Assembly (NCBI GenBank): GCA_002633005.1
Contig: NMRA01000043.1
Coordinates: forward strand, 246,857 to 310,856
DNA length: 64,000 bases
Origin: Phoronis australis
Lineage: Eukaryota > Animalia > Phoronida
Reading direction: 5' to 3'
In this document: piece after piece, positions 16,407 through 49,727 of the stretch
How the letters are laid out: the number at the start of each line of letters is the position of its first letter
How positions within the stretch are numbered: position 1 is the stretch's first letter
Made by a program: the position numbers and the translations under genes
The notes under the pieces: generated by a model
Told to the model about the DNA's origin: nothing
Seen by the model: the letters and a program-made list of their open reading frames with translations, nothing else
Databases searched by the model: none

Positions 16407-17351
16407 TAGGCAATGACCATCGCCTCTGTTGGCCCGAACCAGAGGCGATGCAGAGGCTATAGGCGCTCTGTACGCCGGAAGCTTTTCGGCGAATTATGCC
16501 TCGCACCGACTAAAACATCAAAGTCACGTTGTTATAAATACCTTTTGCGCATAGAGGAACACCTTACGAGGTTGTCGATGTGTCTTTAAAATTCATTCCA
16601 ACTCGAACAAATACTACCGTTATTAAACTTTTTCTTCGAGCAGTCCGTATTTCAGTTCCCAAAATCGTGAACTCACCATTTTCACTGGGCGCACGCCAAG
16701 AGATTTGACCTCATTCTTTTAACCCGGCTGAAGGTCAGAAATTGCGGTCTTACCGGCGAACTTTGAAAGCTAAGTCCCCGCCCTCTGCGTAAGTGCTGCC
16801 GGAAACCAGCCGTGCATTTGCCGTTTTGTTAAACATTAAAATGTCAGATATGTGCACAAAGACTATTAAATGTCATATCAACAGCATATATTTTTATCAA
16901 ATACAAACGATAATTCATTGAAATACAATCAGTTTCAAGTAACGCCAAATAAAGACAAGTAGTGGTGGCATTTTGGAAATGAACATTTGACTGACAAGAC
17001 CGCAATGGCTCACCTTTGGCCTATTTAAAAATTGAGGTTATGAAGTCGCATCACGTAACGAGTGAGGTAAAAATTGGAGCGTGCGCAGTATAAAAATAAT
17101 GAGTTCACGATTTTGGGAACTGAAACAGGGACTGCTCGATGAAAAAGTTTGATAACGTGAGTATTTGTTCAAGTTGGAAGGAATTAAATACATCGGCAAC
17201 CCCCTAAGGTGTTCCTCTATGGGCAAAAGGTATTTATAACAACGTGACTTTGATGTTTTAGTCGGTGCGAGGCATAATTTACCGAAAAGTTTCCGGCGTA
17301 TGGAGCGCCTATAGGAGCTGCATCGCCATCAGAGGCGATGGTCATTGCCTA
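16407..17351. mobile_element. Foldback MITE with ~270-bp TIRs, MULE-like
   Basis: taggcaatgaccatcgcctctg... / ...cagaggcgatggtcattgccta. Imperfect 9-10 bp TSD gcatcagtg / gcatccggtg. Confidence 0.85.
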
Positions 17352-18169: not shown

Positions 18170-18879
18170 NNNNNNNNNNNNNNNNNNNNNNNNNNNNNNN
18201 NNNNNNNNNNNNNNNNNNNNNNNNNNNNNNNNNNNNNNNNNNNNNNNNNNNNNNNNNNNNNNNNNNNNNNNNNNNNNNNNNNNNNNNNNNNNNNNNNNNN
18301 NNNNNNNNNNNNNNNNNNNNNNNNNNNNNNNNNNNNNNNNNNNNNNNNNNNNNNNNNNNNNNNNNNNNNNNNNNNNNNNNNNNNNNNNNNNNNNNNNNNN
18401 NNNNNNNNNNNNNNNNNNNNNNNNNNNNNNNNNNNNNNNNNNNNNNNNNNNNNNNNNNNNNNNNNNNNNNNNNNNNNNNNNNNNNNNNNNNNNNNNNGTA
18501 GACGCACAACTCCCTTAGGATCAAAACTACGTTTTGTCTTTGTTTTCCCCGGCACCATTCTATCATAACCACACCTCGTTGGTTCAATGTTATGGCGAAT
18601 TTGTGAATGAAAGGACTGAGGGTATACCGAAGCTGTTCTGTACCTGGCGGGAGACTCAATTTACTTGAAAGCCCTTTAACCTTTGACCTTGGATAAGTGG
18701 TAAACAAATATCCACGCGGTTGTGCGGTTCCAAGGTGGTTCTGCTAAATCTTTTTTTTTTCTCGCTACGCAGTATATATTTCGTATTTGAAGTTCCCCGA
18801 GAATGAAGATAAGGTATTTTGCTAGACACAAGTGAAATATTGTAAAAATGGCCCATTTTTGTGAATAAGGTTGGACAAT

Positions 18880-19840
18880 AGTATCGCACTGGACACTGAA
18901 TGACCCATGACAGACAAAGTGCACTCTGGAATGGGTCCGGCAGAAACCAAAAAAGGACCCCCAAAAATGAGCTAGCACATACATTTGAGGTACCACAAAA
19001 ACCAACTCCATGTGTCACAGATAGCTAAAACCCCTATGGCAGACAAAATACACTCTAGGTTGTGCCCGGCAGAAACCCCCAAAAATCTCAACCACGTTAT
19101 GCCATCAAAAATTTGAGCTAGACTAGATTTTCGAGGTACCGGCCAAAACTGATTTTAAATGAACAATAGTACCGCACTGAACACCAAATGACCCCCGACA
19201 GACAAACTGCACTCTGGATTTTGCCCAGCAGAAACCCCCAAAAATCTCAATCAACGGTATACCGTCAAAAATTTGAGCTAGACTAGATTTTCGAGGTACC
19301 GGCCAAAACTGATTTTAAATGAACAATAGTACCGCACTGAACACCCAATGACCCATGACAGACAAATTGCACTCTGGAATGGGTCCGGCAGAAACCAAAA
19401 ATGACCCCCCCCCCAAAAAATGAGCTAGCACATACATTCGAGGTACCACACAAAACCAATCCCATGAGGTTCAATACATGTCACAGGTCACTAAATGCCC
19501 TATGACAGGCAAAATTCACTCTGGATTGTGCCTGGCAGAAACTCTCAACCAAAGTATGTGTTATCGAAACTTTGAGGTACCCGAGGTAGCGGCTAAAACT
19601 GACTTACAACCAATAATGGCGCCGCTCCAGATGATCCATGACAGACAACAAATTGTGCTCTGGAAAGCGTTCGACAGAAACTCAATTACACCGTAAAAGG
19701 AGCTAGGTCATCATTCGGGGTACCACAATAAACAATTTCCTGTGATTCAGATAGATGTTACTGGTTACCAAATACCCTATGACAGTTAAAACCCACTGTG
19801 GGTTGTGCTCGCCAGCCCCAGAAATCTCAACTACCGGTAA
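18880..19840 (+). repeat. Complex satellite-like array of alternating ~130-160 bp units
   Basis: Repeated gacagacaaa(g/c/t)tgcactctgga...ggcagaaacc...gagctag...gaggtacc. The same family is inverted at 26780-26874 and 37989-38645. Confidence 0.85.
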
Positions 19841-26240: not shown

Positions 26241-27496
26241 TCATTTATATATTTATTTAAATAGGATTGGGATTCCAGCGCGTGGCTGCGCTCCAAATTA
26301 GTGGCGATTTGTATTTCATCACGGAGGACATTATACCGGCCATCGACAAATGACTCCGCGAAACTAAAACATTGCAAACACTATACACTACACTGAATTT
26401 CGACACCATGTAAAAATTTCTTCAAAAACTTACCACTAGGCGAGTTAACTGTCTTACATCTTGACACCCGTCTGCTTTTCGCTTGTTGTGATCATCAGAG
26501 TAAACACAGGCTTTAGTGAACGAAAGTTTTCTATAAGTAGTTTTTGTTTCCTGCGGTCCCGCTTTTTGCAGTTAACTTACTAAATACACCACTTTTGTCA
26601 CCAATTGAGAATATCTGTACTTCGATTTCCGTGGTGCAATTTTAACATCTTGTTGTCCAGTTGTTTAGGTTTCCCAACGAGTACTTGAACTATCAAGGGG
26701 AAGCTGCATGGTACATGTAGCTCCATTTTTTAAGGTCCTTTCTGGGTTTCTGGCCTACTACTTCCTGTGTAAAATTTATCTTTCACGGGTCATTGGGTAT
26801 TCAGTGCAGCACAATTGTTGGTTTTAAATCAGTTTAAGCCCGCCGATACCTTGAAAATCTAACTGTCTCAAAAACACCCCGGCCAACCCGCGATCGAGAA
26901 CGACCGGAAGGCGATCGAGAACGAAATTTGGCGCGAGAAGCGAAGCCAGAAAATGTAAGTAAATTTGATGAATTTTTGGTTGTTCTGAGCTTCAATACGA
27001 AAACAGAGACATGAGTTCAAGGCGTAACACATTGAGGAAGGCCAGGTAGAAGTTTAGGCTTGTGTCTCGTCCAAATATTGGAGAAAAGTTACGTTAACCG
27101 ATGCATCGCTTGAGCCGAAGGTGATTTGTATGTCATTTTTGCAGATTTTGGTTATTTTTGGTTCTATATCAATATATTAATCATGAAGTTATGAAGAAAT
27201 GACGTATGAAAATGTAACCCAACGCCTGTTTTCCGTAGCATTGTCAAGATCTCTGATTTATGAACCTTTTTCTGTTAAAAGAAGCGATCGAGAACGCAAT
27301 GATAAGCGATCGGGAACGCACATATGAGCTCGCTAAAGCGATCGGGAACGCATTGCGATGTGTTGAACAATAATGAACATTTCAGTAATAAAGAGTTTTA
27401 AAAGTTACAAAACAAGTGTGGTTCAATGAATTAATGATATTTTGCATCATTACTGTGTTACTTTCGTGTCAAAAACTAAATTTCATAGCATAGCAT

Positions 27497-27784
27497 CCCT
27501 TACCAAAAAGGCCTCCTGCAAACACTTGCAGCAAGCTTGCCGCAAAAGTTTCTGCAAACCAGCCACAAACACATGGAATGATCTGTTGTAAGTTGCCTGC
27601 AACCCAGCTGCAAACATTGCAGCAAGCTTGCTGCATGTTTGCCGCTAGCATGCAGCAAACTTTCACTATGCAAATGAAGTTTGCAGCAAGCTTGCAGCAA
27701 ACACCTCCATGTCCTTATTTGGAACAGTTCCTGCAAGGCAGCTGCACACATTGCTGCAAGCTTGCTGCAAACATCTTCATGGGG
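27497..27784. mobile_element. EnSpm/CACTA-like MITE in intron 1 of the large element
   Basis: CCC...GGG ends and multiple direct/inverted tgcagcaagcttgc motifs. TSD not clear. Confidence 0.55.
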
Positions 27785-28202
27785 TTATATAGAAGTTTCT
27801 GCGAACCACCTGAAAAAATATTGCTGATTACTATTTTTGCTTCCCAATATGGTTTCATGAAAGACCAGTCTACTGAATGGGCTTTTGTTGAAGTTGTATG
27901 TTGAAATTTGCAATATTTCGACTAGGGATATCATCCAACAGCAACATTCATTTAGCTAAGGCATCAAACATAAATTAAACCTTTCCATTCTACAATATTT
28001 CTTAGATGCTGAAAAGAACAATTCTACTCCAGACCAATCTGCATTGCACCAATCAGTGGTGTTGCATAGGGATCATGGGATGATCGCTCCACTTTTCTTC
28101 CTTAGCATATATTTCCATAAAATCACCATGAGCACTACAAGTACAGCAAGTGTTATATTTTAGTTATGGATATTTTCACAAATGATTTTATTTTTATTTC
28201 AG

Positions 28203-30020
28203 GAAACAATTTCATTGTTATTATTGCCCGGCAAGCTTCAACGACCATGAAAAAATCATTGCCCACGCTGTGGCGGTGCACCCTTCCAGGGTTTTAAAGT
28301 ACAGGCGTCTCCTTTTAGATGAAACTACTGGGAAAATGGGACTCCAAATTAAGACGCACCCAGGAGTTATTCCACAAGACGTATCAGCTGGGGGAAAACA
28401 AATTGTTGCGGCTGATGAAAGTGAGTGCCGAATATTTTTACAAAACTGCGACAACAAAAGAAAAATACCGAACACGCCAGTGAAGTCAAGCAATGATAGT
28501 GAGTTTGCCAAAGAAAATCTGAAAATAGATGAGACTCCCAGTAATGAAGAATTAGAGTTTGACAAGTTGTGCTTCTTGCTTCCCCAAGTCATAGAGACAA
28601 TTATGAAAGAAAATGGTCTCATGGAATCTTACGTGAAACTGAATGAACTTCTTGCCTCAGGTAGACTGCCTTTGAACAACATATGTTTCCTACTATTCCT
28701 GGATATAGTCGAGTGGTTTTCGGTAGCAAACACTTCCAAAATGCGTTACCAAAACCCACAAACTCTTAGGTTCTGGGAAATTGGCTACCAGCTATTTCAT
28801 GGAAAGTTCATCAGATTTATGTCTGGACAACGAAATACAGGTCAGATTTTAGATCAGTCAACATCAAGGGGAGAGTATAGCCCAGATGAATCCAAAGTGA
28901 ACTTTGCGGTGCCATCTCTGACTACAATACAACATAACCTTTCTAAAAGGAGTCCGTTTTTTCCAGGAATAAACAGGCTGACAATTGAAAATATAGCCCA
29001 CACTTATGAAAGCTCTCCTGTAATTTTAGCTGTGGATGGAAAAAAAATAAGTCGCGGAAAGGGCAAACGCATGGGGGATATTGAACTGTGGGGTTTTGAA
29101 CCAAAGCCAACTCTTCAGGAAAGACTGAACCAAGTTGAAAGGGAAGTGGAATTCGTGAATGAGCTAACCAAAGAAACGGATAGACTAATGACCTATAGTG
29201 TTCAGACCATTAGTGCAATACCCTCAACATCACGTGAAAAAATTCATTCCGGACTCGTTGAATTGATTAAGTTCATAGGATATCGTAATAAAACAATGAG
29301 AGACACTGAACAGACGCTAATCCGCTCTGAAGAGAAGTTCAAGCGACTCGGCGGAGATGACTGGATGAAATCCAAGTATTTCCCGGTCATCTCTTTGATG
29401 AGGACAAAACGCAGTGAAATTTGTGCCCACCTAAAAGAAGGTCTTCAGCTGTCAGACGAGATCACAAAATTGGGAATTGACCTAAATGGGAAATCAAACC
29501 TTTATTCCGAGAAGTTAGTTAAGCTTGCAGAACAACAGAACTTTTATTCACTGAACCCGAACTTCAATAAGTCGACTGATCCACGTTATATGCAACAAAG
29601 AACCCCGGAGTGGTTTTCTTTGCGCAGCGAAGCGAAAGTTACTGGAAGTACAGCCAATTGTGCACTCGGCTTAGAGACCTTAAAAAGACAAAAAGAACAT
29701 TTTCACCAAGTAATTCACGGCATAGAAAAACCTCGTCACAGTGCACTTAACACTCAGAGAATGCTTTATGGAACTGAACACGAACTGGATGCAGTCGCAA
29801 CAATGACATCTAAAGTGTTGCCGTTTCTGTTTCCAGAACTGAGCTATTATGAAGAAGGATGCCAAACAATAACTCACGGCGACAAAGCAGCATTCATGGT
29901 AGTGAGTTCGGATGGCAGTCTCAGAACAAATGATAATGCAGAACCAATAATGATGTATGAAAACAAGTGCAAAGCACCCCAGTCCTATAATCCTAACGCA
30001 TACTACAAGATTCCTAAATA
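28203..30020 (+). CDS. Main open exon: C2H2 finger, first catalytic-Asp strand, coiled region, YqaJ-like (lambda exonuclease, PD-(D/E)xK) domain
   Basis: About 605 codons open from the acceptor ttttatttcag (28202) to the gap. YqaJ motifs QRTxEWF, TGS, G.xxE, SxDG, ExKC, IPxY. Confidence 0.85.
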
Positions 30021-31207
30021 NNNNNNNNNNNNNNNNNNNNNNNNNNNNNNNNNNNNNNNNNNNNNNNNNNNNNNNNNNNNNNNNNNNNNNNNNNNNNNNN
30101 NNNNNNNNNNNNNNNNNNNNNNNNNNNNNNNNNNNNNNNNNNNNNNNNNNNNNNNNNNNNNNNNNNNNNNNNNNNNNNNNNNNNNNNNNNNNNNNNNNNN
30201 NNNNNNNNNNNNNNNNNNNNNNNNNNNNNNNNNNNNNNNNNNNNNNNNNNNNNNNNNNNNNNNNNNNNNNNNNNNNNNNNNNNNNNNNNNNNNNNNNNNN
30301 NNNNNNNNNNNNNNNNNNNNNNNNNNNNNNNNNNNNNNNNNNNNNNNNNNNNNNNNNNNNNNNNNNNNNNNNNNNNNNNNNNNNNNNNNNNNNNNNNNNN
30401 NNNNNNNNNNNNNNNNNNNNNNNNNNNNNNNNNNNNNNNNNNNNNNNNNNNNNNNNNNNNNNNNNNNNNNNNNNNNNNNNNNNNNNNNNNNNNNNNNNNN
30501 NNNNNNNNNNNNNNNNNNNNNNNNNNNNNNNNNNNNNNNNNNNNNNNNNNNNNNNNNNNNNNNNNNNNNNNNNNNNNNNNNNNNNNNNNNNNNNNNNNNN
30601 NNNNNNNNNNNNNNNNNNNNNNNNNNNNNNNNNNNNNNNNNNNNNNNNNNNNNNNNNNNNNNNNNNNNNNNNNNNNNNNNNNNNNNNNNNNNNNNNNNNN
30701 NNNNNNNNNNNNNNNNNNNNNNNNNNNNNNNNNNNNNNNNNNNNNNNNNNNNNNNNNNNNNNNNNNNNNNNNCAATTAGTAATAATACTTGTATTACAAT
30801 CAAAATTGTGTCTTGAGAGAACAACTTGAATGTATGCCAAGCTTTAATTACAATATACCGAGATGTTTTATTCTTAACGCACGACAAAATCTATAATAAT
30901 TGCAACAACGATATTATTTACTTGACTAAACTAACAACAGCAACACAGAGCGTTGAAATGCACCCAACGGGATGTTTATTAGCATTGAAAATGGCGCAAA
31001 ATATGTCGAATGCCAGTGGAGAAAACCATGAAATCTGACTTTCCCCCGTGGAAAGGCATGCTTAGAACAGCATGTCGAGCATATTTAAGCATTTTATTTT
31101 AAATTACCTCATTACTTGTCAACTGAAAAAAATCACTCTTAAAAATTATAAACATATTTATTTTTCCCATGTTCATCTAAAATACTTGAAAACTGGCGAA
31201 TACTTCA

Positions 31208-31850
31208 TCGATTACTATTTTTGCTTCCCAATATGGTTTCATGATACATCAGTCTACTGAATGGGCTATCATTGAACTTGTAGGCCTATGTTGAAATTTG
31301 TATTATTTCGACTATAGCGATATCATCCAATAACATCATTCATTTATCTAAGGCATCAACCATAAATTATACCTTTCTATTCTACAATATTACCATGGTG
31401 TTGAAAAGAACAACTACAGAGGTTATATCCAGTTATTACCATACTAGTGGACGTTCTAAACACATTCTACTCCAGACTAATCTGCATTACAGCAATCGGA
31501 GGAGTTCCATAGGGTACATATGGGATGATCGCTAGTGTTTTCATCCATGTTTGTTCGACCCAACTTTGAGATGCTGTGTACGCCATTTGTTCCGGTGTTT
31601 TCAACTCAAACTTGTTGCCTCGTAACCTCTGCAGTGTCTCTAAGTGGACGTTCTAAACACATTCTACTCCAGACTAATCTGCATTACAGCAATCGGAGGT
31701 GTTCCATAGGGTTCATATAGGATGATCGCTATTGTTTTCATCCATGTTTGTTTGACCCAACCTTGAGATGCTGTGTACGCCATATTTGTTCCGGTGTTTT
31801 CAACTCAAACTGGTTGCCTCGTAACCTCTGCAGTGTCTCTGGCTTTCATC
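31208..31850 (+). repeat. Intronic repeat: diverged copy of 27825-28088 plus ~200-bp tandem duplication (31446-31840)
   Basis: gattactatttttgcttcccaatatggtttcatga...attctactccagac shared. agtggacgttctaaacac...gcagtgtctct x2. Confidence 0.85.
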
Positions 31851-34800
31851 AAGTACATTATGTCACTCAATATTCACAAACCTAAAATATGAATGCCATT
31901 TCACTTTCCACATAAAGGCATTTGTGATAGCATTATTAGAATCTCCATTACGTTTTAAGTCAAACTTTTGCTCTTCTGCTCATGTATGAACAGACAGTTA
32001 AACTTGTGTTCAATAGTTTGACTGCAGACTGAGAATGCGTATGACTGAAGGTGATGGCAGTTAAAACACCTACCAGTAGTTAAATATACAACATGCTAAT
32101 CTTATTTTGTACCCAATAATTACCATGCATTTAACCAAAATAAAAATTTGTTGTTCCTATTGTGAATCAAACAATCAGAGAGCGATGTGAAAATTGACAC
32201 AAACTTAAGTTTTACAGTCTCAATTAAGTGGACTGGTTACATGTAAAACTATTGACAATGTTTTGGAAACTAGTTGATTCTGGTCTCAACCCCAGTTAAC
32301 TCATTTGAAATCTGTGCTGTACTTTTCCCTAACCATTATAACCTCCAATTTGGCTGAATCAGTAAGAAAATCAACTTGCTTTTGTTTGCAAGACCAAAAC
32401 TACTGATTCATGAATGAAGTCTAAGTAATTTTACTTAACAATCACATCAATATAAATACAATTTTAAATTCAGAACTCACATCCATACAGTTCTTCAGTT
32501 ATCCATGTAGAGTCTAGGCTGTACCAAAACCGTTTGAATTTGGTTCAAATGAAAGCTTATAGGTCACTTCCCAGGCATGTAACCTTGACAACCACATGCT
32601 TTCCTTGATAACAGTCCCACCAGATCAACATGTGGCTGGGCTAGCATAATTTAAATAAACAATCAACAGCCCCTGAGGCATTAAACATTAATGTAATTCA
32701 AGAGGCATTCCTTGAAAACTGTCCTAGCAATTCAACATGTAGGTGGGCTAGTATGATTAAAGTGAACAATAACCCTAGAAGCATAAAACAATAATATAAG
32801 GACACTNAAAACACCTCTCTCGAAACTCTAAATGCTGTTGAAAATGTAATTGAAAGCTCAGTAACAAATAACGTGCAGAATTCGCATGAGTTCCTTGGAC
32901 AGGACTATTTTGTCGAACCATGGTTGTTCCAAGAAGAACCAGGTGCTGCACAAAGTTTTGGTGTAACATCTGACGTGCTCTCTGGGGCTTTTGAGGCCAT
33001 GTACAGTAGTGGCCATGACGACTTCTATGTGCAAACTGTGATCGATATGAGTGTTGATAAAATACCTTTAAGAAGAGATGGTGACCATATGGAATTGGGC
33101 GAAGAAAATCTCAACTACACAGTATATCCCAGTGATGACAACACATGTGCGGACACAGAACATGTACTTGAAAGTAAGGAGAATGGAAATGCGGAGCTAT
33201 TAGTTTCTGAGAATCGTTACACTGTGGACACTGCAACGTCTGAATCCATGCTGAATGCTTTAAAAGCAAATGAAAAGGCTGAAAACTATCATAAATGGTC
33301 ACAAAAAAACTGTTGAAGACTTCAAAAGACTTTTTGCATGTAAGACCATGTGCACTTGCAACAAGGCACTCCACAAGTTTGAACTCCAAATGTGTCTACA
33401 AGTGTTACGTGTGCAGCACGGTGTTTGTTTTGACATTAAACCCTCAAAGAAGGAGCTAGTTTAGTTGTTCACGTCTACATTGAACTTTGGGGTAAATCCC
33501 CCTAATAGGAAGTATCATCAGCGCAATCGAAGTGTTTGCTCACTTAGAAAAATGTGTTGTTCTGTTTTGGAACGTGCATCAAAACAAGAGCTTGCTAAGA
33601 TTCTCGCAGAAAACACATGGGATAAAGCTTTACAGCAGTGGATTGAATCTGGACCATTGTACCTCACTTCATGTTTTCTTGATAGTGAAAATAGTATGAA
33701 GAATTGGTTTTCTCGTCCAAATACCGACCATTACGGCAAGAACAGGTTCCACTTCACCGACGCCTGTCACATTTTGACNTGCTCACTTAGAAAAATGTGT
33801 TGTTCTGTTTTAGAACGTGCATCAAAACAAGAGCTTGCTAAGATTCTCGCTAGCACAAAACATGGGATAAAGCTTTACAACAGTGGATTGAATCTGGACC
33901 ATTGTACCACACTTCATGTTTTCTTGATAGTGAAAATAGTATGAAGAATTGGTTTTCTCGTCCAAATACTGACCATTACGGCAAGAACAGGTTCCACTTC
34001 ACCGACGCCTGTCACATTTTGACTTGTATTAGGACAAAACTCTGTACTACTGGAATTGCTGGTTTAAAGCGAAAAGCATGGGAAGATGTTGCTCTATCTC
34101 GCAAAACCCATCTCAATATTGCTGTGATTGAGGATTGCGTTGACAAGCAAGACGTAGCTTTAGCAAGACGTGTATTTTCCAGGGATGTTCAAGAAAATAT
34201 GCTTGACGAATATGTCAACGAGAAAGAATTTTGTGAGGTAATACGAAACTGGTTTGATGTCGAGGACGAGCCTGCCATACCTGCTGCTGAAAGATGCATC
34301 CGAAGGCTTCGACTTAGAAAATGGCTTTTAGAAGAATTTGCAGTGAACACGTTTCCGCCACAAACCCGATATATCAGAGGCATACCGATACAGACTTTAG
34401 AGGCATTGTTGGTGCACTTGGAAAGGAAAATGCAAATTTTCCCTTTCTGCAGAAATCAAACATATAATATTCATGCAATAGGTTCTCAGCAGGTGGAAAA
34501 CTTCTTTTCAACATTCCGAGATATGGACTCCACTGGACAAGGGACACCAAAACCAGACTCCATTCCTCATATGATGACAGCAGTTGCAGATTTAGACTAC
34601 TGCAGAATTGACCCAAGCAGGTAAGCATGATTTAGAATCAAGCTTGTTTCCTACACATGATTAACTGTAAATTACGCGGACATATCAACTCTCATGTTTG
34701 ATATTCTACAAAAGTGTTTTTTCAGTTAAAATTTTGAAGATGTGGCAACAAAACGCTCCGTGAATAAAAAAGGAAAAAATTTTTCACATACCTATCCTCT

Positions 34801-36370
34801 GAGCTGTGACGGTAAAAAAGTTTTGAGGGCGATGTAAGTGTAAATTTATTTTCACACAAGGGCTCGTACGTATAATCAAAATAGTAAGGAACTAGTTGAA
34901 CTGTAAGAAATTATATTAATTTAACAATTAGCTTGTCATGTTTTGTAAGAGGTGCCACTAAGAATTTAAATTGTTTTAAATTCATTCACGTTTACATGTT
35001 TAATCTTCTATAAAACCCCCTACTTGGTTTCAGATCATTCTATATGTCAACCACACGAGCCGGAGTGTATCCAATGATACAATTTGAGTCCGATGAAACC
35101 CAAGAATGTTTTCACGGCCAAACGCAAGGCATTCATTCTGCATTAGTTTTTAGTCTGATAACTCCAAGGTTAGTGTTATGTGATACACGTTAACTGTAAT
35201 TTTTTCTGTAGTCAACTTTTTCTTTTTTCGTCTTCATCTATTCGTTATCATAATGTCGCGTATTATAGTGCTGATAAAGGCACGTAAAGCACCATTGTTT
35301 TAAAAAATATTCAAATCGTGGCATTGTCAAATAAGCAAGGTCTTCATGAGCGCCGGGTCAAAAATACCCTTCAATAAATAAACGTCCAAGCGCTTATGCG
35401 TCCTATTACGGTATTTCCACTACTTTGAAAACAGTGGCAAGTGTAATGCAGCTCACAGGCTAGCGTCGAAAGCTTTAAAGGAGGATTGATTATTCATAAA
35501 ATTTTGAGACCTCATAAGGTCGTAACCCTTTNTTGATTACTCATTAAATTTTGAGACGTCATAAGGTCGTAACCCTTTCATTCTCTTCAGTAGACGACGA
35601 TACAAAATCCAAGATTCCTTTTTCCAGGGACCATTACTTTGATTCAGTGCAAAGAGATCGGAAGAAGCATCTTCGGAAAGGAGGGAAAGTGTCGTTGCCA
35701 AGCGAGTCCGCCCATGGTGAGAAAGGAGTGCGACAACACCATTCGTGAGATGACTCGAAGATACCTGCTCATAAACGACTCGGATTTCAAAATTTGTCAG
35801 AAGTTGTGTAGCCAAAAGTATTATGGTGATAAAAGTGGTGGGATTTTGTTTAATGGTTTACTAATAACATCCATACCGAGTTGAACAGACTGACTTGCTA
35901 CATCCTTGTGACTTGTATGTGTTTTGTGTTCTTGGTCCCGAGTTCACTGTGCTATTTCAGTTCATGGGACATTGAAAAAGAGCGAGAGGAGTTGTAATAC
36001 ACATACTATATTGTGATTTTCTAAAAACGTAGTGACAATGTTGTCTTTAAGTCATTTCAAGACACACTATAGTAACTACACTGGAAATCAACAATATGAA
36101 AGCAAATTCCGTAATAATAGTAATTGTTTAGTCACACATCATCTCAAAATAGGTCATAAAAATATATAAAATATAGCTCTGGGTAATCAACATTACAAAG
36201 GCATTGAACATTGGAATGCATTGCACTTATTATAAACACTTATTTTCTTTTTAAAATCTTATGGTAATAACAATGGCCAATGGCACTTAGTATGTCATTT
36301 GAACATACCTAAACACTACAAAAATGCACTGGTTCTGTTTAAGATACATAAAATAACACAAATGTAGAAA

Positions 36371-36748
36371 CTTTAGAAAAAGGTTCAAAATATCACATCT
36401 GGCAACTGCCAACCATAAACTCTTTTAATCAGAATAAAAACTTAAACAAATTTCACTACTGGACTTAATGAAGCTTCTGTTTTTTGTGCCTACAGTGGGA
36501 GGCATAATGCTTGTACGATTTGCCGCATTCACAACAGAAAGCAGTGACCTCATGTTGTGACGCAATGTGTCGCTTTAGGCTCACTTTCTCTGTGAAGCAT
36601 TGGTTGCAGGCATGACACTGAATTGTCTTGTCTCCTGAGCACAGTGCTTCATGTTGTGACTTTTTGTACCTATCGAAAAACTTCTTGCCACATGAAACAC
36701 ATGAAAATGCTTTGTAGTTTGCGTGCTGGCTCATGTGATCTTGAAACT
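36371..36748 (-). other. Duplicate of the zinc-finger 3' end across a single-n join, probable assembly artefact
   Basis: Near-identical to 36750-37128 and separated by n at 36749. Confidence 0.75.
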
Positions 36749-36843
36749 NCTTTAGAAAAAGGTTCAAAATATCACATCTGGCAACTGCCAACCATAAACT
36801 CTTTTAATCAGAATAAAAACTTAAAAAAATGTCACTACTGGAC

Positions 36844-37923
36844 TTAATGAAGCTTCTGTTTTCTGTGCCTACAGAGGGAGGCATAATGCTTGTACGATTT
36901 GCCGCATTCACAACAGAAAGCAGTGACCTCATGTTGTGACGCGATGTGTCGCTTTAGGCTCACTTTCTGTGTGAAACATTGGTTGCAGGCATGACACTGA
37001 ATTGTCTTGTCTCCTGAGCACAGTGCTTCATGTTGTGACTTTTTGTACCTACTGAAAAACTTCTTGCCACATGAAACACATGAAAATGCTTTGTAGTTTG
37101 CGTGCTGGCTCATGTGATCTTGAAACTTTTGTTTGTCTCACGAACACTTTCCCACAGTCCGTCACTGGGCAGGTGAACGTCTAAGTTGCAGTCCTGTCAC
37201 AATGCTTTGATGCCATGTGGTCAAGCAGTGTTGATTTTTTACTAAACGAAGCTCCAGAAGTCACACATAGTCCTTTGTCACAAGCACTAGTTCTCCTTTT
37301 TGAAGGTGTAGACGTTAAGAAGCTAAAAGACTCATCTTGTGGCAGAAGTTCAACTAAAAAATATCAAAAGCATTTCAGTTATGTGTTAGGTTAAATCTCA
37401 CAAAAATCATGAAAAACAGTGAAGTATAATAAACAATCAACCCACCCGGCGCCTATTTCAGGGTACGTATTAAATGTAAAACTGACATAACACCGTAACT
37501 TGAACGAGTATTCAGGCCAATGCATAGAAAAAGAATGTGCGTTCACGATCGCCATATGAAAGTAACGATTTCGTTCTCGATCGCCGTCTCACACAGGGAC
37601 AAGCTTGTATTGGTAAATATCTCGAATTGTTTCACAAAACATAACTTCGAAAGGTGTCCCCTGGGGCAATGAAGCTCTAAACGTCACACTTCTTTACTTT
37701 AGAACTCTGGAACTGCTAATAACAAGTAAAGGCATTTTATCGGAAGGCATTACTTTCTGGGCCCTTTATTTGATAAAATAAGCAAAAGCCAAGCATCATT
37801 TCATATCGGCAACAAAGGTTAAGCTCTTACGCTTTTCTCTGTGTCGCATTCGTGCCAAAGTAGCCACTATTTAAGAAGAAAATGACACTAAGACTCACCG
37901 GGTACATCATCGTCGTCTGCCAT
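36844..37923 (-). pseudogene. Transposon-borne C2H2 zinc-finger gene (5 fingers), two exons
   Basis: Exon 1 37923-37899 MADDDDVP + gtgagt. Exon 2 37353-36844 after ttttttag, phase 1 matches. Fingers CVTS..H..H (degenerate), CPVTDC, CVSC, CHAC, CCEC. One in-frame TAG (~37181-37183) and one frameshift (~37128). Confidence 0.85.
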
Positions 37924-37988
37924 TTTTGCGGCAAAGTGGCGTTCTCGACCGCTTTCCGGTCGTTCCCGATCGCGGGTTGGCCGGGGTG

Positions 37989-38645
37989 AAAAATGTCATA
38001 CCGTGGTTGAGATTTTTGACGGTTTCTGCCAGGCACAATCCAGAGTTTATTTTATCTGCCAGTCATAGGGCATTTAGTGACCTGTGACATGTATTGAATA
38101 TCATGTAATTAGTTTTTAGTGGTACCTCGAATGTATGTGCTAACTCATTTTTGGGGGGTCCTTTTTTGGTTTCTGCCGGACCCATTCCAGAGTGCAATTT
38201 GTCTGTCATGGGTCATTTGGTGTTCAGTGCGATAATATTGTTCGCTTAAAATCAATTTTGGCCGGTGCCCGGGCCTCGAAAATCTAGTCTAGCTCAAATT
38301 TTGATGGCATGCCGTGGTTAAGATGTTTGGGGGGTTCCGCCGGGCACAACCCAAAGTGTATTTTGTCTGTAATAGGGGTTTTAGTGATCTGTGACATGTA
38401 TTGAATCACATGGAGTAGGTTTTTAGTGGTACCTCGAATGTATGTGCTAGCTCATTTTTGGGGGGTCCTTTTTAGGTTTCTGCCGGACCCATTCCAGAGT
38501 GCAGTTTGTCTGTCATGGGTCATTCGGTGTTCAGTGCGGTACTATTGTTCGTTTTAAATCAGTTTTGGTTGGTACCTCGAATATCTAGTCTAGCTCATTT
38601 TTGGGTCCTTTTGTAAGGCCCCCAGGGGTCACACCCAGAGTGCAG
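37989..38645 (-). repeat. Inverted copy of the 18880-19840 satellite-like array (continues from 26780-26874)
   Basis: ggtacctcgaatgtatgtgcta(a/g)ctcatttttgggggg...tttctgccggacccattccagagtgca repeated. Confidence 0.85.
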
Positions 38646-39233: not shown

Positions 39234-41791
39234 GTGAAGAAGTCATCACATGAGCGACACGTTCTCATATTGACTGAACTTGTGTTCTTGTGCTCACCCT
39301 TCGCCACCCAATTTTGTCCCACCTCTGCGCTGAGTTCATGTGCTCTGAATTACAAATAATAAAGATTATGTGTCCTTTCGCCCGCTTCCAATGACTGTGT
39401 TTCTATATTGTGTAAGATTTCAATTAAAATATCGCTGAATACTGATTAGTTGCCAATTTCAGTGAAGTAAACATGTGAACACGGCCACGTCAACTTTCTT
39501 GAGCAAATAAACCTTCACGTCAGTACGTAAGCTTGCCAATTTTGTCTGTAAGAAGGACACATGAATGCAACATGTAAGCTTACAAGGGCTTTGTACGTAG
39601 GACATGGATTGAAAAATGTCATTACGTCATCATAGATGGAATTTGCTGTAATGATGGCGCGATTTGCTTGGCACTGACACCACGCACCTTAAAAACATCC
39701 CAGCCGAGCCGAAATTTCCTGTTAGACTGTGCGTCATGACACTACCAGGTAATATGATATCTAACCGTAAATTATCATGACTGTTTTATGCGTTACAACC
39801 ACGTGACGTGCAAATGCACAATTTGAAGTGGCTTGTCATTTCCGGGGGAAGACCAAAAATCGTCAACTTCCTGAGATGAAATGTAACACTGAACGCAGAA
39901 CTAAATGACAAACTTCACATGGTACCTGGTGACGATGTGTAAAATCTTGAACTACTGACTGTTTTCTTTGAAAAACTCAACTGAAATTCCCCGCGGAACG
40001 CAATAACAAATAGTCGAGATAACCTACATTTCAAAAGATGCCAAGTCGATGACGAGGTCCTTAGTTTTATAGTTGTTCAGTATAACTTGAGTAAAATATG
40101 GCCAGACCTATAATAGGTTTTATTTTAAAATTGCGAAATCAATCACTTGTGTTGGCACTACACAAACTGTCAAACTAATCCAAGAGTTCACTTCCCAAAC
40201 CTTCGCCGATTTTGTTTGCTTTTATAAATTTTGTTAACAATGTGAAAAACAGCTTGCGTTCGGCCCATTACCAAAGATACTATATAAAGTAACTATAAAA
40301 TCTTTGTCATTACTAATCTTTCCAAAATCGTACTACCCATATGAATTTCCCACACATAACGAGTGTCCGAATAAATAACAAAAACGGTTGCTGCACCACT
40401 TTAGATATCGTCATGAGTATTTGGTAAAATATTTACAGTCTTCCTCGAGCAATAAATTTCATTTTATTGCGTGGTTACTACGCGCCGTGTTTTGTCTTAG
40501 CTTTATATAAGTGTGGTGTTCTGTTTTATTCACACCAGGCTATCACCAGAAAGTTTTAACTTATCGTTTACCGTTTGGAAGAATTTCACAGTTGAACGGC
40601 GAAAAACATGTGGTGTAAAATGGTCATATGCTTTGGTAAGACTCTAAGGCGATGTTGTAAAATTTCGGAAATGCGGTCTCGGAACCCACCGCACAAATTT
40701 TCATTGGTATTAAAAGATCCGATAATGTGTTTGTTGTTTTGGTAGCATACTTTGTACATTGTTCACGGTAATTTATGATGCTCTGTTCTTCAACGTTTGA
40801 TTCGCGGTTCATTGTTATTTGTAGTGACTTGTAGTGATCTTAGGCTATTTATTGACTAACCACGCCGAGCAGGCCCGTAGCCAGGGAGTTCGATCGCGCC
40901 TCCACGCCCCCCCCCCCCCCCCCCNCCCCCCCCGCGGACAGTCCAGCCCCAGCCTATCCGTTAAAGATGGGACACAGGTGGACAACAACAACAAAATTTT
41001 GGCAGCTACCGTTACTTAAAGTTCACTCTCGATTTTTATCAAAGCCAAAAATCTTCTTACTAATGATACTTAAATAGCATAAGAAAGGACAATCTCCTGT
41101 GTTTTCAAAAGTTCACAAATACGCCGTAGATTTTGGGAACTTGGTTGAGTTCCTATTTGGGACTGTTTCGTGCAACCGGACACTGAACTCCGACAGTTCA
41201 TTACTCTAATTGTCTGCTAATGAGTCGGAACTGACATGAATAAAGTATCCCCCATCTGTGTAACTGTTTAAAGGATGTGCAAGAGTTGAATAGTTTCTAA
41301 AACATTGATTACACTGTTTACATATGAGCTCAGTTCCAATCACCGCCGATCGTGATTCTTAAATCGAACTAACGACTCATTCTGAAGCAGGAACAGCATC
41401 TGGGGCACGGGTCCGGGCTGCGGCGATCGATCAACGGCGGTTTTAAATTTGTAAGACTGAATGGGAATCTTTGACTTCGAGATGACTGGCAGGGACAGGG
41501 CAGCCTACTAACTGCATTTAGTTTCGACCATGCCATACGTATGGTTCCAGTGGGTGAGGTTCAGGTGCAGTGGCCCTAAACTTTTCATTCGCGCTATGAA
41601 ATTATGTGATCTTGACATGGATTTGATGAATGTATGGTGTTTGATAATTCATGAATATCCTACTTCATATTTTTCATGGCTTGGAGTTTTCCTCTTTTAA
41701 GAGGATTTCCTCTTTTTTGGATTCAATTTCCTCTCATATGATCTCCAATTTCCTCTTTTTTCATCTCTTTATGAATATTTTGACTTTATTC

Positions 41792-41813
41792 ATGCAAAAA
41801 ACGTTTCTTGCAG
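41792..41813 (+). CDS. Candidate signal-peptide exon of the Kazal inhibitor
   Basis: ATG CAA AAA ACG TTT CTT GCA G|gtaaat is phase 1 and joins the next exon to give MQKTFLAVILYQVAARS. Alternative ATG at 41771. The true first exon may lie elsewhere. Confidence 0.3.
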
Positions 41814-42028
41814 GTAAATTTGACAGCACATAAAGTATTTCTATCTCATATGTCTATTCATTTGTAGAAAATTACATCACCTGGAAAATTTTCCTATTTT
41901 CGTCACGGGTCATTCTAAGCCCTGATTCTTTTAAAAACGAAAGTACATACTAAGTTTTACAGTTTTCGTAAGACATGCGAGCAATTTCGCGTGTGTATGC
42001 AATTTAAGCAAAGCGCTTGAGCACCCGA

Positions 42029-42105
42029 CATGGGCGGTGCAGCAATGAAAACAGTGGGGGCCTCTAGCCCCCCCCCCAGGTCCTAGTTATGGTGCGCCAC
42101 CTATG
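42029..42105. mobile_element. 77-bp hAT-like mini-MITE with 5-bp TSD
   Basis: catgggcggtgca...tgcgccacctatg, with CCCGA at 42024-42028 and 42106-42110. Confidence 0.75.
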
Positions 42106-42541
42106 CCCGAGCGGTTTAGGTACATGACTCAGTGCATCTGATAACCGAAGCATCGTTTATTTTTGCATGTAAAAGTATAAAAATCACACTAGAGCCCGAA
42201 ATAATTTTGAAGTTGTGAACCTTAGGCCGTAATAAACCTTCGAAGAAGTAAACATTCGGAATAGTGAACCTTCGGAGTGAAAGTTTGGAATAGTCGACCT
42301 TCGGAGTAGTGGGCTGTCCAGTGATGTAAGCAACTTAAGTAACATTCAAAGGCCTTACTGAAAACTCCTCAGTGTCGACGTTTTCAAAATATCAAAGGTC
42401 TACCGTTCTAGAAATTCGAACCAATTAAGCTCCGGGCTTGTTGAGTAAACCTGCACTCAAACGACTGATTGGAACAACCTGCCTGATATACAGAGTGAGC
42501 GCTTGAAATCAGTGATTGTAAGTCGTTAATATTTATTTCAG

Positions 42542-42640
42542 TTATCCTCTACCAGGTGGCAGCCAGGTCTGCAGAAGACTGCAATCGAGCTTGCCAGATG
42601 ATTCTGCGTCCAGTTTGCGGAAGTGACGGTGTAACATATC
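42542..42640 (+). CDS. Kazal-type serine protease inhibitor, exon (end of signal peptide + first half of domain 1)
   Basis: tttcag|...|gtacgt, phase 1-1; ILYQVAARSAEDCNRACQMILRPVCGSDGVTY. Confidence 0.9.
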
Positions 42641-44412
42641 GTACGTCCATTTTGCATTGGCTTCGATTTGATAAAAGCATTGACAATTACTGGAACACTT
42701 TATTGAACAAATAGCAATAGAAAGATATTTTTTCGGCAGTAACATAGCTGCGCTTAGCAGTCTGAGACCTAACACTGAGGGATCTAGGATGTCACCATAG
42801 AGGCGACAACCTTTGATGTGCTCCTGTCGGTAACTTTTTTGGCTTCTTCAACCCTATACTTCTTGAACTAGATTTGTAGTGTAATTTTCAACGTTTTGTG
42901 CCCGTTTCAGCGGATATGGAGATTATTTATTAATCTGGATTAGATCATAGCCAGTCGTGATAGTATTGTGAGGTAAAGAGTCGGTTTGATCAGCAAGGGT
43001 AGCACATCCAATTTTTTTCCGTATATGCGCGTATGTGGCTACATTCGAAGCTGTGCAGTGCTGTAGTTGGGCGTAGGCGCACGTAAGCGCAGCCAACCAC
43101 CTTTTGGCATTTAAACTTAACACCTACGCACTATAAGTTACGTTACTGTAACAGTACTAATTCAGTGGAATTTCAAAATTCCGTGCTCAAGGTGATACCG
43201 TGGGCATTGAGCGCCTACTTACCTCTAATTTTACCACTACAGCACTGAAGCTGTGCCTATATTGAGAATTACGCACACCCGCCTGAACATGAAGCATTTG
43301 ATTAAAATCATGCTTGGAGTAAGTTCCGCATTTATGGGCGCATCCCATTTGTTTGTTTCAGCCTCTTGGTATACGCCTGTACAAAAGACACCTGCTTGCA
43401 CTTACATGCATAAGCAAAACTTAGGCACATGTTCCTGTAAGCGAAACACTCGAGTGAACAATTTTCTTAGAACAAAATTATTTCGGGTATAAGCGTGTGG
43501 GCAAAAACACGCGCACAGTGACAACCACAACAATTGCGGCCGGTATAATCTATACGAAGGAATAACAGCTTTGACCAGCTAACGTTATTAAAGTTGACAA
43601 CTGCCGACCTTCACGATATGGGTCCTTTACGGCTGCTTTACATGTCACCGTTATCTTCTGCTATCATGGCGCATAACTTAACCATAAAGATAAAGAATCA
43701 TCAAATGTGATTCCAGATTTTTAAATTTGACAGTGCTTCGTACTTCATACCTGGACACCTGGCAATGTTTTTAGAGACTTAGCGAAGTGCAACTATACTA
43801 TCGTGGAACACCCTGTTACTCATGATTGTCTCCTAATTACAGTATAACGCGTATTTAGACCTCCACTCCTGACGTTAAGCTGCACTCATATCCTGAGTTA
43901 GGCGCACGCGAAAAACACTTGAGCGAACCAAGGGGCAAGTTTTTTAGAATAGCGAGTTAGTAAAGCTTGTCTTCCTCGTTACAAAACGGTAGATGTTGAC
44001 GTGTTTTCAATTTCGCGTTAACTATTTTTAAGTTTAAAGTCCCATTTCATCACAGAAATGGCTGATCTTCTCAGACTTTCCGATACGGCACTATTAGCAA
44101 TAGTTTTTATGAGACCCGATTAGTGTCAGATTTCTACTTTAAAAAATATATACTTTTACGGTGTTAATAGTTTTAGAGTTTTGGATAAATGCACGGACTT
44201 GTCTTACATAACTTAAAAAATAAAACTAGGCCTGCTATGAATAGACAAAAGGCACCCGTATGCGACTATGTGCTGAACACAGAAGTATTTTTTGAAAAAG
44301 GCATTGTTTCTGATATAGAGGCATGTGACTAAATACGCGCAAATATAAATACAGGTTATTTCTGAATCCTGCTCCACAAGTAATCAAAAAGTAAAAAATT
44401 GTGACGTTTTAG

Positions 44413-44580
44413 CTAACCAGTGTCATTTGGACGTTGCCATATGCCAAGACGATCTTGAGGGAAGAAAACTGTGGAAGGAAGCCGATGGTGCTTGCAAGGT
44501 TAATAAAGAGACTATCGTCTGCAAGAGCAAATGTCCTAAAATTTACCTTCCAGTTTGCGGCTCCGATGGTAAAACTTACG
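44413..44580 (+). CDS. Kazal inhibitor exon (domain 1/2)
   Basis: ttttag|...|gtaagt, phase 1-1; PNQCHLDVAICQDDLEGRKLWKEADGACKVNKETIVCKSKCPKIYLPVCGSDGKTY. Confidence 0.92.
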
Positions 44581-44944
44581 GTAAGTCAATGGGAATACTT
44601 TGCATACATATTTTTCCTTTTAATGCTTTTAAGCATTTTAAAAAATGAATGCTTTCTTATGCGCCCACGTGGCTGAGTATTGTCACCCTCTCTGTTAAAG
44701 CATCTCGCACGCCCTCTGTCGCCCTCCCTATTATTTCCCTCAGGGCTAATTTGCATGAAAGTAAGCAGTTGCCAATTTTCATAAAGAGCAAGATACCAAT
44801 ACTCAATGCAGTGTTCTCTAGCGGCAAATTCATTTTGTCCCTGCCTTTACTACTTCCGTGTACCATGTATTATTTTTTTGGTTCTTGTTTATGTAAACGT
44901 TAGGCCATCTGTAATTAGTGTACTACAACTTTAATTTCTACCAG

Positions 44945-45127
44945 CCAATGACTGCGTCCTTGAGGAGGCCGTATGCGAGGCAGATCTGAAAGGGTTCAAA
45001 CTGAGCAAAGACTATGACGGCCCATGTAAAGGCGAAGTGCAGGCGACAAAACGGGAGCAGACTAGTTGTAAGAAGCCATGTCCCAGACATTACCTACCCG
45101 TGTGCGGCACCGACGGAGTGGAATACG
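44945..45127 (+). CDS. Kazal inhibitor exon (domain 2/3)
   Basis: ctaccag|...|gtgagt; ANDCVLEEAVCEADLKGFKLSKDYDGPCKGEVQATKREQTSCKKPCPRHYLPVCGTDGVEY. Confidence 0.92.
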
Positions 45128-45583
45128 GTGAGTACAGTTTCTCTTGAGGCTACATACAGGTTTATTTCGAAAATCTTTGTGCCGTTTAACATCGACACAT
45201 ATTATTGTCGACCGGACGGACAGAATGTATCGGGTGCTACAACGTGCAGCGAATATCCACAAATTTTTAATTGCTCCCAACACCTGTCATGAATGGTAGT
45301 CTGTCTATCAAGTTTTTAGCACATAGGCGGATCCGTCCTAGCAAATAATTAAAGAGAGCCCTCGCAAAACGAATTTGTAGGAAGTTGAACAGAAATTAAG
45401 AATCGGAAGACGGTTCAAGATAGTGATAATAACATTGGATGACTTGGGATACTGTGATACGTGCTTTATTCCTTTCCACTTTTGATGGTCCTCCTTTTCT
45501 CGCACTCCGACGCCCTATCACATCCATCTCATACTATACCAGGATAGACTTCAGTCAAAGTTTGAAATTGCCCATACCTTCAG

Positions 45584-46009
45584 GGGCCCGGTTGTATGAA
45601 ACAGTCCCAAATAGGGACTCGACTAAGTTTCCTAAATCCTCTGCGTATTTTTGGACTTATGAAAACATCGATTGTCCTTTCTTGTATTGTTTTAGTTTCA
45701 TTAAAAAGTCAACTTTTGACTTTGATGCAAATCTAGAGTGAACTTTACGTTGAATTGTCAATATTATCGGAAATAATTAGGCATCTTTTCATGCAAAACC
45801 CCAATTTAAGGACTGAGTTCCTTTTTATTTTCAATTAACTCTGGGCTCAGTTTTTAGTAATATTATTAGAAAATGTCATTCAGAGAGGAGCTAATAATAA
45901 AGCTGAAACCATAGAACTGCATCTGTGTCTCCATAAAGACACCTATACGCAAAAAGACTTAGGGACCTTAGTTCAGTCCTTATTTGAGGCTGTTTCATGC
46001 AAGCGGCCA
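45584..46009. mobile_element. PIF/Harbinger-like MITE
   Basis: Imperfect TIRs ggcccggttgtatgaaacagtcccaaatagggact / agtccttatttgaggctgtttcatgcaagcggcc, with CAG and CTG flanks. A solo end of the same family lies at ~41145-41185. Confidence 0.7.
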
Positions 46010-48393: not shown

Positions 48394-49507
48394 GATTTCG
48401 ACCATAGTACCGCTATAAATTTTATCTCAACTTGTTCCCGTACTTGAGAAGTAACTTTTGGGTTTTCGAAGAAATGATTTGGTTTTTTAGACCATGCTGG
48501 GCACATAAAATGACACGCCGTCACAATTAATGTTAAGCGCTAACGAACAGTTCTTTCGAAACCATCCACTGGTGGGACGTTCAGTTTGACTAAAGAACAA
48601 TTTAAGATCAGTTTTATAGGAGTAAGGAGTTTAAATTTTTTGTGTGTGTTGGAAGCTGCTTTGACAATCATTCAAGGTTATTTTTATATTTATCGTCGTC
48701 ATGTTTGTGAGCGTACAGAATTTGTTTTTTCTGTTTGGGGGACCAGGCCGAATTTCTTTGTATACGGTCAGGCTAGCTGCTATAACATAGTCGCCCACGT
48801 GCGCGACGCCCGTATTGAAAGGTAGACAAGCAAGCAACGGGCAAACACCAGCACGATAGTTTACTGTACTCATTCATCTTTATGTCTTATTTGAAGTAGT
48901 TGTATAATACTTAGGTAGCAGTCTGAAGATTTATTCCTTTGAGTTATTCTTTGCTATTGAATATTGACGGTAATAAATGACCAGGCGGCAGAACAACACG
49001 ACACTGAAGGGTCGGTCAAGAGTTATCCAAATAACGTAAAAAGTGAAGTGGTTTTGATTCTTCAAGACAAAAAGAGACTGATGCGCATCATGTTAGCATT
49101 TCAATTGATAAAACAAAATTTTGATAAATGTATCTGATGTCCATCAAGAGAGGGTGCTGTATTCTTGTCTTTTTCAAAAGACAAAAGAACGAAATGACCA
49201 TTTTGAAGGTTTTTCAAAAGCTACTTCGTTATGCTAACGTGCACAATTGATAGGTCCACTTAGTCACTGGAACTATAAGTCCGTGTCCCGTTACATCTTA
49301 AAGTGGCGCTTACCAAAAAGAATCCTGAATAAAACATTACAGATGAATATTTCGTATTATAACATAAAAATATTTCAGAATAACGTTTTTATTAAGGAAT
49401 CTTGTTTTTGGTAAAAAAAGAAAGTTTCTCTTTAAGATGGGGCACGCTTCGAATCAATAAAAATGTCCAAATAAGAATGGGGTTGGCGTTCTTATACATA
49501 TGGTGCA

Positions 49508-49727
49508 TAGTTTATTACATAATAGGGAGGACAGTTTATTACACAATAAGGAGGACAGTTTATTACACAATAAGGAGGACAGTTTATTACACAATAGGGA
49601 GGACAGTTTATTACACAATAGGGAGGACAGTTGATTACACAATAAGGAGGACAGTTTATTACACAATAAGGAGGACAGTGTATTACACAATAGGGAGGAC
49701 AGTTTATTACACAGTAGGGATGACAGT
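49508..49727. repeat. 24-bp minisatellite, ~9 copies
   Basis: agtttattacacaata(a/g)ggaggac tandem. Confidence 0.95.

Follow-up and report, generated by a model that had tools for sequence, protein, structure and literature searches.

Transib and ProtoRAG transposons have CAC termini and a target site duplication of 5 bp, and ProtoRAG carries two genes that are arranged tail to tail. Elements of the P superfamily duplicate 7-8 bp of their target, in some cases up to 9 bp (PMC3698922). The P transposase depends on GTP and cleaves with a stagger of 17 nt, and the donor breaks are repaired by homologous recombination or non-homologous end joining (PMC7776569). Insertion domains of DDE transposases have been described as lying between strand 5 and helix 4 of the core (PMC7776569). 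A lambda-type exonuclease is carried by two unrelated superfamilies, KolobokE and ISL2EU (PMC4482050, PMC9587614). In KolobokE, which is common in invertebrates, a DDE transposase with C/DxxH is fused to a lambda-type PD-D/ExK nuclease (PMC9587614), while ISL2EU of the PHIS group is a two-gene animal element with terminal inverted repeats (TIRs) and a YqaJ exonuclease (PMC4482050). The role of this exonuclease in the several superfamilies was stated to be unknown (PMC4482050). In this work, 64,000 nucleotides of the Phoronis australis genome (contig NMRA01000043.1 of assembly GCA_002633005.1, positions 246,857 to 310,856, hereafter the window) were analyzed. At 26875-37988 the window contains a genuine transposon with inverted ends, many insertion sites in public reads and two genes, the larger of which combines a transposase with such an exonuclease.

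According to structure prediction, the transposase almost certainly has a P-type core with the lambda-type exonuclease lying inside the ribonuclease H (RNase H) fold, between the first two catalytic Asp residues. The model on which this assignment is based was calculated with AlphaFold2 for the homolog P0099 (1145 residues, about 31% identical to the C-terminal frame of the window) from a 91-row alignment and reached a predicted local distance difference test (pLDDT) value of 87 and a predicted template modelling (pTM) score of 0.79. Foldseek searches with this model gave E values under 0.001 solely for LHK/lambda exonuclease and P transposase. The top VIA-align match was P transposase 6p5a (Z 26.4, root-mean-square deviation (rmsd) 2.8 over 317 residues), whose residues 200-569 were superposed on residues 62-1137 of the model. 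The matched range contains the catalytic residues D230, D303 and E531 of P (numbering of PMC7776569). LHK-Exo matched residues 281-485 (Z 15.2, rmsd 2.7, 172 residues), while the Z scores of other DDE enzymes were 11.0 (Transib), 9.7 (RAG1) and 8.8 (Hermes). Since the alignment with P spans the exonuclease, the split core closes around this domain. In the predicted order, strands 1-2 with the first Asp are followed by a helical hairpin, the exonuclease and strands 3-5 with the second Asp; a second, acidic insert, a GTP-binding-like insertion and the last Glu would then come in turn. A first-pass annotation made from the letters of the window alone had already placed the exonuclease inside an RNase H-fold core and had taken the AVDG motif for the first catalytic Asp. 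Both proposals agree with the P0099 model, which superposes on P transposase across both insertions, and with the invariance of this Asp (53/53), which occupies the position expected in a P-type core. The protein motifs quoted in the annotation were all found in the stated order, and its view that the YqaJ and DxxH/E halves belong to one protein was borne out by single proteins in homologs and by one frame in public contigs. On the other hand, its appeal to P-type signatures holds only in part. Kinship with P was recovered by structure, and structural evidence was needed because DxxH alone occurs in five superfamilies (PMC9587614).

The two halves of the gene in the window itself agree with this model. 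For its C-terminal frame, the nearest Atlas clusters (0.97, 0.95, 0.94) carried the P-type GTP-binding domain (PF21788) and RNase H C families. With the N-terminal half, lambda exonuclease was the sole Foldseek match (E 0.041), the exonuclease profile matched 3syy with an E value of 1.3e-4, and the closest viral structures to the exonuclease were YqaJ proteins of phage and giant virus. When this half was modelled alone, the strand bearing the first Asp did not form, as would be expected if the strands that pair with it come after the exonuclease in the chain. Some results speak against the assignment to P. The Atlas recognition value of 2246 is slightly below the mark of 2300 set by the tool, sequence profiles compared with the PDB did not reach P transposase, none of 58 C-terminal homologs matched PF21788 or PF21789 at E<=0.2, and a Pfam match to the P-type RNase H N model above the curated cut-off was obtained for only one of 13 long homologs. 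The predicted link to P is made up of one homolog structure, partial Pfam matches and Atlas features.

The architecture is shared by a large protein family. Searches with the N-terminal frame yielded 13 proteins of 1089-1706 residues with 29-45% identity, plus 18 shorter ones. The C-terminal frame recovered 556 representatives of clusters at 50% identity (E<=0.001), 96 of them at 1e-30. A third homolog search, confined to proteins above 2987 residues, yielded none. All five named homologs are from bivalves (Mercenaria, Pinctada, Mytilus and two from Dreissena). The order of the motifs is fixed: xDGKK is followed after about 190 residues by the YqaJ motifs, the Asp of (S/F/T)DG(Q/E)W lies about 230 residues past ExK, and then come a variable insert, DxxH and, 162-172 residues on, the Glu. 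The second catalytic Asp was identified in the homologs; the corresponding stretch of the window is a gap of Ns. Because this gap truncates the exonuclease, the open reading frame (ORF) of the window did not match Pfam YqaJ at E<=1, while 32 of 38 aligned relatives did. The P-type RNase H N model matched 15 of the 38 aligned members; in 10 of the 13 long homologs the match lay after YqaJ and covered just the second half of the model, starting at positions 53-67 of 137. Conservation was counted in 91 aligned relatives, excluding rows with gaps at the respective column. In the catalytic core, D1 was present in 53/53, D2 in 78/79, DxxH in 77/77 and E in 71/71 rows. The exonuclease residues D (75/77), E (72/76) and K (72/76) were retained in about 95%, and 32 of 37 full-span rows had both active sites. 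Three metagenome loci (L001, L004, L005) likewise contain both halves in uninterrupted ORFs of 1337-1532 codons.

A tree of family members was calculated from those 59 of the 91 rows that had less than 20% core gaps and letters at the three exonuclease columns. Exonuclease residues have been lost in five rows, in at least three separate events. Three diverged proteins constitute a clade with dead exonuclease and intact DDE (support 100/100), and DDE is intact in all four exonuclease-dead rows in which the three acids are covered. The branch with degenerate exonuclease comprises L015 (1898-7990), P0067, P0108 and P0110. L015 has a frame of 2031 codons with an additional insert in the GTP-binding-like domain and, in place of a C2H2 gene, an ORF of unknown nature downstream on the same strand.

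Public reads and contigs carrying the same species label (runs X1, X2, X4, X7 and X8, of which X7 and X8 are RNA) were mapped. Run X4 was guessed to be DNA, yet its contig at the transposase start is spliced. The plus-strand gene is one spliced reading frame across the assembly gap. Contigs of X1 and X2 connect 30020 to 32808 through 992 letters that keep the frame by arithmetic, and within which stops are possible. From the spacing in homologs, the remainder of the exonuclease can be expected in the gap, followed by strands 3-5 of the RNase H fold with the second catalytic Asp. Introns 34621-35033 and 35169-35627 are spliced in X7 and X8, every junction read having one mate direction. A 5073-base contig of X4 starts exactly at acceptor 28203 and has about the size expected of a spliced message, of which the first 248 bases were aligned. 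RNA depth over the coding parts was low (about 2-14). The residues E, D, E and K of the exonuclease are all intact in the frame of this copy.

The copy is damaged as assembled, and an intact one was not encountered. The transposase has stops at 33462-33464 and in exon 4, and 243 bp are duplicated next to the N at 33779. An extra base near 33303 is absent from both contigs, from 9/14 X7 reads and from 1/3 X8 reads. Tandem duplications stand beside single Ns at 35532, 36749 and 33779. They look like assembly artefacts; public contigs pass over the first two, while 33779 is judged from the N and the near identity of the copies. The segment 30773-32806 does not belong to the plus gene in the bridging contigs, which lack it; it is probably a misplaced contig or may be an insertion in this haplotype. 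Spliced reads of the minus strand map to it at 31879-32479, a short piece near 30932-30966 is of high copy number, and about 280 bp (200-300 bp) are in common with intron 1. Without this segment and the duplications, the element is about 8.65 kb long. The features are compiled in Table 1.

Table 1. Positions of the element's features within the 64-kb window
Feature	Position	Strand	Details
Left target site duplication AAAAA	26870..26874		Empty-site joint and printed flanks
Left terminal inverted repeat	26875..26923	+	49 bp, begins CAC; arm reaches 26932 at 88%
13-bp motif, five copies	26890..27350	+	Two in TIR, three some 400 bp further in; candidate sites of protein binding
Transposase exon 1 end	26953..26954	+	AT of split ATG; intron 26955-28202; GT..AG joint 26954-28203 in one X4 contig
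Transposase exon 2, first part	28203..30020	+	C2H2 finger, helical region, first catalytic Asp 29035-29037, long helical hairpin, N-terminal part of lambda/YqaJ exonuclease from about 29596
Assembly gap	30021..30772		True length about 992 bases (contigs of X1, X2; homolog spacing)
Repeat-rich segment absent from bridging contigs	30773..32806		Passed over by contig joint; loose end at 32806
Transposase exon 2, second part	32808..34620	+	Acidic low-complexity insert, helical domain, DxxH 34004-34015, GTP-binding-domain-like insertion, catalytic Glu 34496-34498
Transposase exon 3	35034..35168	+	GT..AG joints: X7 3 and 6 reads, X8 14 and 9 reads
Transposase exon 4, coding part	35628..35800	+	Basic C-terminal tail; in-frame stop 35746-35748 in this copy
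Convergent C2H2 zinc-finger gene	36844..37923	-	Five fingers; predicted mini-exon 37923-37899, predicted intron 37898-37354
13-bp motif, four copies	37540..37973	-	Two in TIR, two subterminal
Right terminal inverted repeat	37940..37988	-	49 bp
Right target site duplication AAAAA	37989..37993		Empty-site joint and printed flanks

The ends of the element are well defined. In the arms 26875-26932 and 37931-37988, 46 of the 49 outermost bases are complementary, the outermost 22 perfectly, as the annotation had reported for its 49-bp TIRs; by a crude estimate such inverted ends would be expected by chance at about 1e-13 in 64 kb. Unlike flanks stopping exactly at 26875 were found in 20, 29 and 54 RNA reads and in three contigs (agreement 0.46-0.6), which demonstrates that this boundary is used at many sites. 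An empty form of the site, in which 26869 is joined to 37989, was present in one contig of run X2, eight reads of run X7 and seven of run X8. It skips 11119 bases, i.e. the 11114 bases of the element plus five, and the target duplication is therefore 5 bp (AAAAA). The annotation had called it short, which agrees with the size read at this one site. That the same length is the rule for the whole family is probable. Against this stands that the single site is situated in a run of A within a dispersed repeat, other units of which may have given rise to the empty form; an exact empty-site unit was not present within the window itself. The repeat used as target consists of units of 145-160 bp (18870-19840, 26718-26869, 37994-38602); the copy near 19 kb is inverted, and the contig depth is very high. 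The terminal 22-mer was not matched exactly in contigs of viruses or prokaryotes, and relatives of the element were not found in viral contigs. None of 18 related metagenome loci, taken from 183 candidate stretches, contained both ends together, and no second duplication could be read. L003 opens with CAC and L008 has CAC immediately outside a 59-bp repeat, which is merely suggestive.

The minus-strand C2H2 gene that the annotation had seen facing the transposase indeed encodes five fingers, the first one degenerate and the duplicated stretch excluded (Pfam zf-C2H2, E 1.5e-6). As assembled, its frame is interrupted by a stop at 37181-37183 and shifted near 37130. The stretch 36371-36748, next to a single N, is a second copy of the 3' end of this gene and was rejected as a source of additional fingers. 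RNA reads over 36375-37547 are biased to the strand opposite to the transposase; the zinc-finger intron was absent from the joints displayed. Both genes of the window begin less than 80 bp from an end, each with a mini-exon. Among the 18 related loci, there are three that continue for over 1.5 kb past a near-complete transposase. Of these three, L011 and L012 (24-25% identity to the window) possess a facing multi-finger C2H2 gene, whereas L015 showed no C2H2 match in the 2.2 kb downstream of its transposase, a point against a general two-gene organization. L008 is a deletion copy whose perfect inverted repeat of 59 bp encloses the beginning of the transposase and a C2H2 frame that faces it. 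Thus, of the partner gene and TIRs which the annotation had suggested to look for in relatives, the former was recovered and the latter were not seen at both ends of any locus. Since the zinc fingers of the window are generic (27% identity to L011), it is the arrangement rather than orthology that serves as evidence for a second gene. All in all, the element is very likely a two-gene unit. In L011 (7225-8382, minus strand) and L012 (7971-10409, minus strand) the zinc-finger gene is far larger and has coiled-coil or proline-rich N-terminal parts.

A THAP domain, whose absence the annotation had also noted, was not detected by Pfam, nor did the THAP pattern occur in any of 26 relatives, 16 of which have an N-terminal C2H2 pattern. 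The 13-bp motif matches nine times in the 64-kb window, each time within 480 bp of the two ends, compared with 0.02 matches expected. As THAP is missing and the size of the site fits five fingers, the zinc-finger protein may be a THAP substitute that binds this motif.

Overall, the data are best explained by a two-gene TIR transposon with a P-type transposase whose internal lambda-type 5'-to-3' exonuclease resects the donor break, an explanation for which a probability of about 0.55 is estimated. According to this scheme, the transposase would pair and cut the ends and join them to the target with a stagger of 5 bases; cut-and-paste by a P-type enzyme is suggested by the fold and the ends. The exonuclease would chew back the excised donor site 5'-to-3' and thereby lengthen the 3' single strands on the donor flanks. 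Such a resection would favour homologous repair from the sister chromatid, by which the element would be recopied, so that each jump would yield one additional copy on balance. The five-finger protein would bind the 13-bp end motif and take on the job of THAP in end recognition or promoter control. For an action of the exonuclease on the donor break, the odds are even or slightly better. This role is favoured because the exonuclease was lost at least three times with DDE kept, and because the nuclease recurs in Kolobok and ISL2EU in combination with other chemistry. The clade with dead exonuclease and intact DDE fits a helpful rather than an essential role, and by analogy the occurrence of the exonuclease in unrelated superfamilies could point to a general benefit. 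Some points weigh against the scheme. The exonuclease-dead proteins may lie outside mobile elements, and lambda exonuclease acts as a trimeric ring ('toroidal' in PDB titles), which is hard to reconcile with a transposase dimer. The main alternative, which is less likely, is that the exonuclease trims the element's own ends, degrading the non-transferred strand 5' to 3' and leaving a long 3' tail. Such trimming would suit P transposition, which needs the 17-nt stagger and a looped-out transferred strand (PMC7776569), and it would suit an exonuclease that is anchored inside the catalytic fold and has been retained by about 95% of the relatives. However, there are DDE-intact proteins without the exonuclease residues (three independent losses, one diverged clade), and Kolobok and ISL2EU, which share the nuclease, are not known to need tails of this kind.

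Retention of the catalytically dead domain in 5/59 tree rows and in L015 would be understandable if the exonuclease were mainly structural or DNA-binding, or if it limited the element by degrading excised copies, so that catalysis was incidental to spread. This is improbable, since D-E-K is kept in 72-75 of 76-77 relatives that are just 20-33% identical to the reference row, which argues for selection on exonuclease catalysis. The gap, the foreign 2-kb segment and the three duplications within the element raise the question of whether the architecture is an artefact of nested elements or of distinct genes that the scaffold has brought together, the zinc-finger gene being a host gene acquired accidentally. 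Such an origin is highly improbable: two public contigs bridge the halves in frame, the long ORFs of L001, L004 and L005 contain both of them, 32 of 37 full-span proteins have both sites, and facing C2H2 genes occur in relatives of merely 24-31% identity. This origin can be regarded as largely refuted.

The P-type transposase with its exonuclease is of interest for several reasons. A whole second nuclease between the first two catalytic Asp residues has been kept across hundreds of diverged relatives. As a single-chain system with natural exonuclease-dead members, the family makes the question of the role of the exonuclease directly testable. A P-type enzyme with different end recognition and a shorter target stagger is useful for studying the unusual chemistry of P. 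Moreover, the family accounts for bivalve proteins that are now labelled just 'YqaJ domain' or 'uncharacterized'.

Elsewhere in the window, 1434-3130 has TTAA at both ends, inverted repeats of about 170 bp and a frame that weakly matches P2RX7_C (E 0.03); it is likely a Kolobok deletion copy retaining part of KolX. The 4.7 kb at 41014-45750 lie within inverted repeats of about 160 bp (79-84%) and lack an ORF of at least 170 codons, and are probably a decayed DNA transposon. Two long fold-back palindromes (4557-5183, 16444-17327) resemble miniature inverted-repeat transposable elements. Tandem arrays are located at 54339-55950 (41 bp), 49450-50170 (24/43 bp) and 10465-10780 (18 bp). Decayed frames of retrotransposons without long terminal repeats were detected at 57334-58658 (minus strand) and 60825-63344 (plus strand), the latter with Pfam matches to endonuclease and reverse transcriptase.

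Compared with the members of the P superfamily considered here, the Drosophila P element (PDB 6p5a/6pe2), 1360, Galileo and vertebrate THAP9/zebrafish Pdre, the element shares the split RNase H core fold, the GTP-binding-type insertion between strand 5 and helix 4, DDE with DxxH, and introns. With the zebrafish P-type element it has in common TIRs and short subterminal repeats about 400 bp inside (PMC7776569). There are also clear differences. The spacing between D1 and D2, which holds the helical hairpin and the exonuclease, is about 540 residues instead of 73 in P, and that between D2 and DxxH is 170-560 residues, compared with 33 in D. buzzatii P (PMC3698922). The N-terminus bears a C2H2 module rather than the THAP (C2CH) domain of P, the target duplication (one site) is 5 bp and not 7-9 bp (PMC3698922), and a second, convergent C2H2 gene is present here and in L011, L012 and L008, while P has a single transposase gene. 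Although the element works like P, it differs in THAP, duplication length and gene number, and is thus not a canonical P member. The statement of the annotation that it fits no superfamily is consequently justified as far as THAP and the duplication are concerned, but not for the core, which is related to P by structure.

The other systems that resemble the element also differ from it. In KolobokE the nuclease is downstream of the transposase, the termini are RR..YY and the target is TTAA (PMC9587614); here the nuclease is inside a P-like core, with CAC..GTG termini and 5 bp. Membership in KolobokE is ruled out by the exonuclease between D1 and D2, the termini and the 5-bp duplication. ISL2EU has YqaJ on a separate second ORF, a Harbinger-type transposase with THAP, an AT duplication and mostly GG ends (PMC4482050), and is ruled out by the single-chain YqaJ, the 5-bp duplication and the CAC ends. 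Transib and RAG-like elements share CAC termini and the 5-bp duplication. However, the core is far nearer to P (Z 26.4, rmsd 2.8) than to HzTransib (11.0) and RAG1 (9.7), both with an rmsd of about 5, or to BbRAGL (8.4), and by these fold scores membership in this group is excluded as well. Furthermore, the partner gene is a C2H2 array, whereas that of ProtoRAG is RAG2-like. With lambda exonuclease, YqaJ and LHK-Exo, the exonuclease shares the PD-(D/E)xK fold and the catalytic E..D..ExK residues; by contrast, it is not a free enzyme but part of a transposase chain. In the literature searched, no paper describing this architecture was found, though supplements with Repbase family lists may bear on its novelty; the excerpts of PMC5718144 and PMC10294476 do not mention YqaJ, and the curated library of the bivalve survey, as excerpted, lists no P families. 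The odds are somewhat against some member being already catalogued in Repbase or Dfam. Only tentatively, the family might be regarded as an undescribed sister group of P of superfamily rank, widespread in marine invertebrates, in which a separate five-finger protein takes over end recognition from THAP, the stagger has been shortened to 5 bp and the exonuclease gives a self-templated gain of copies similar to homing drive.

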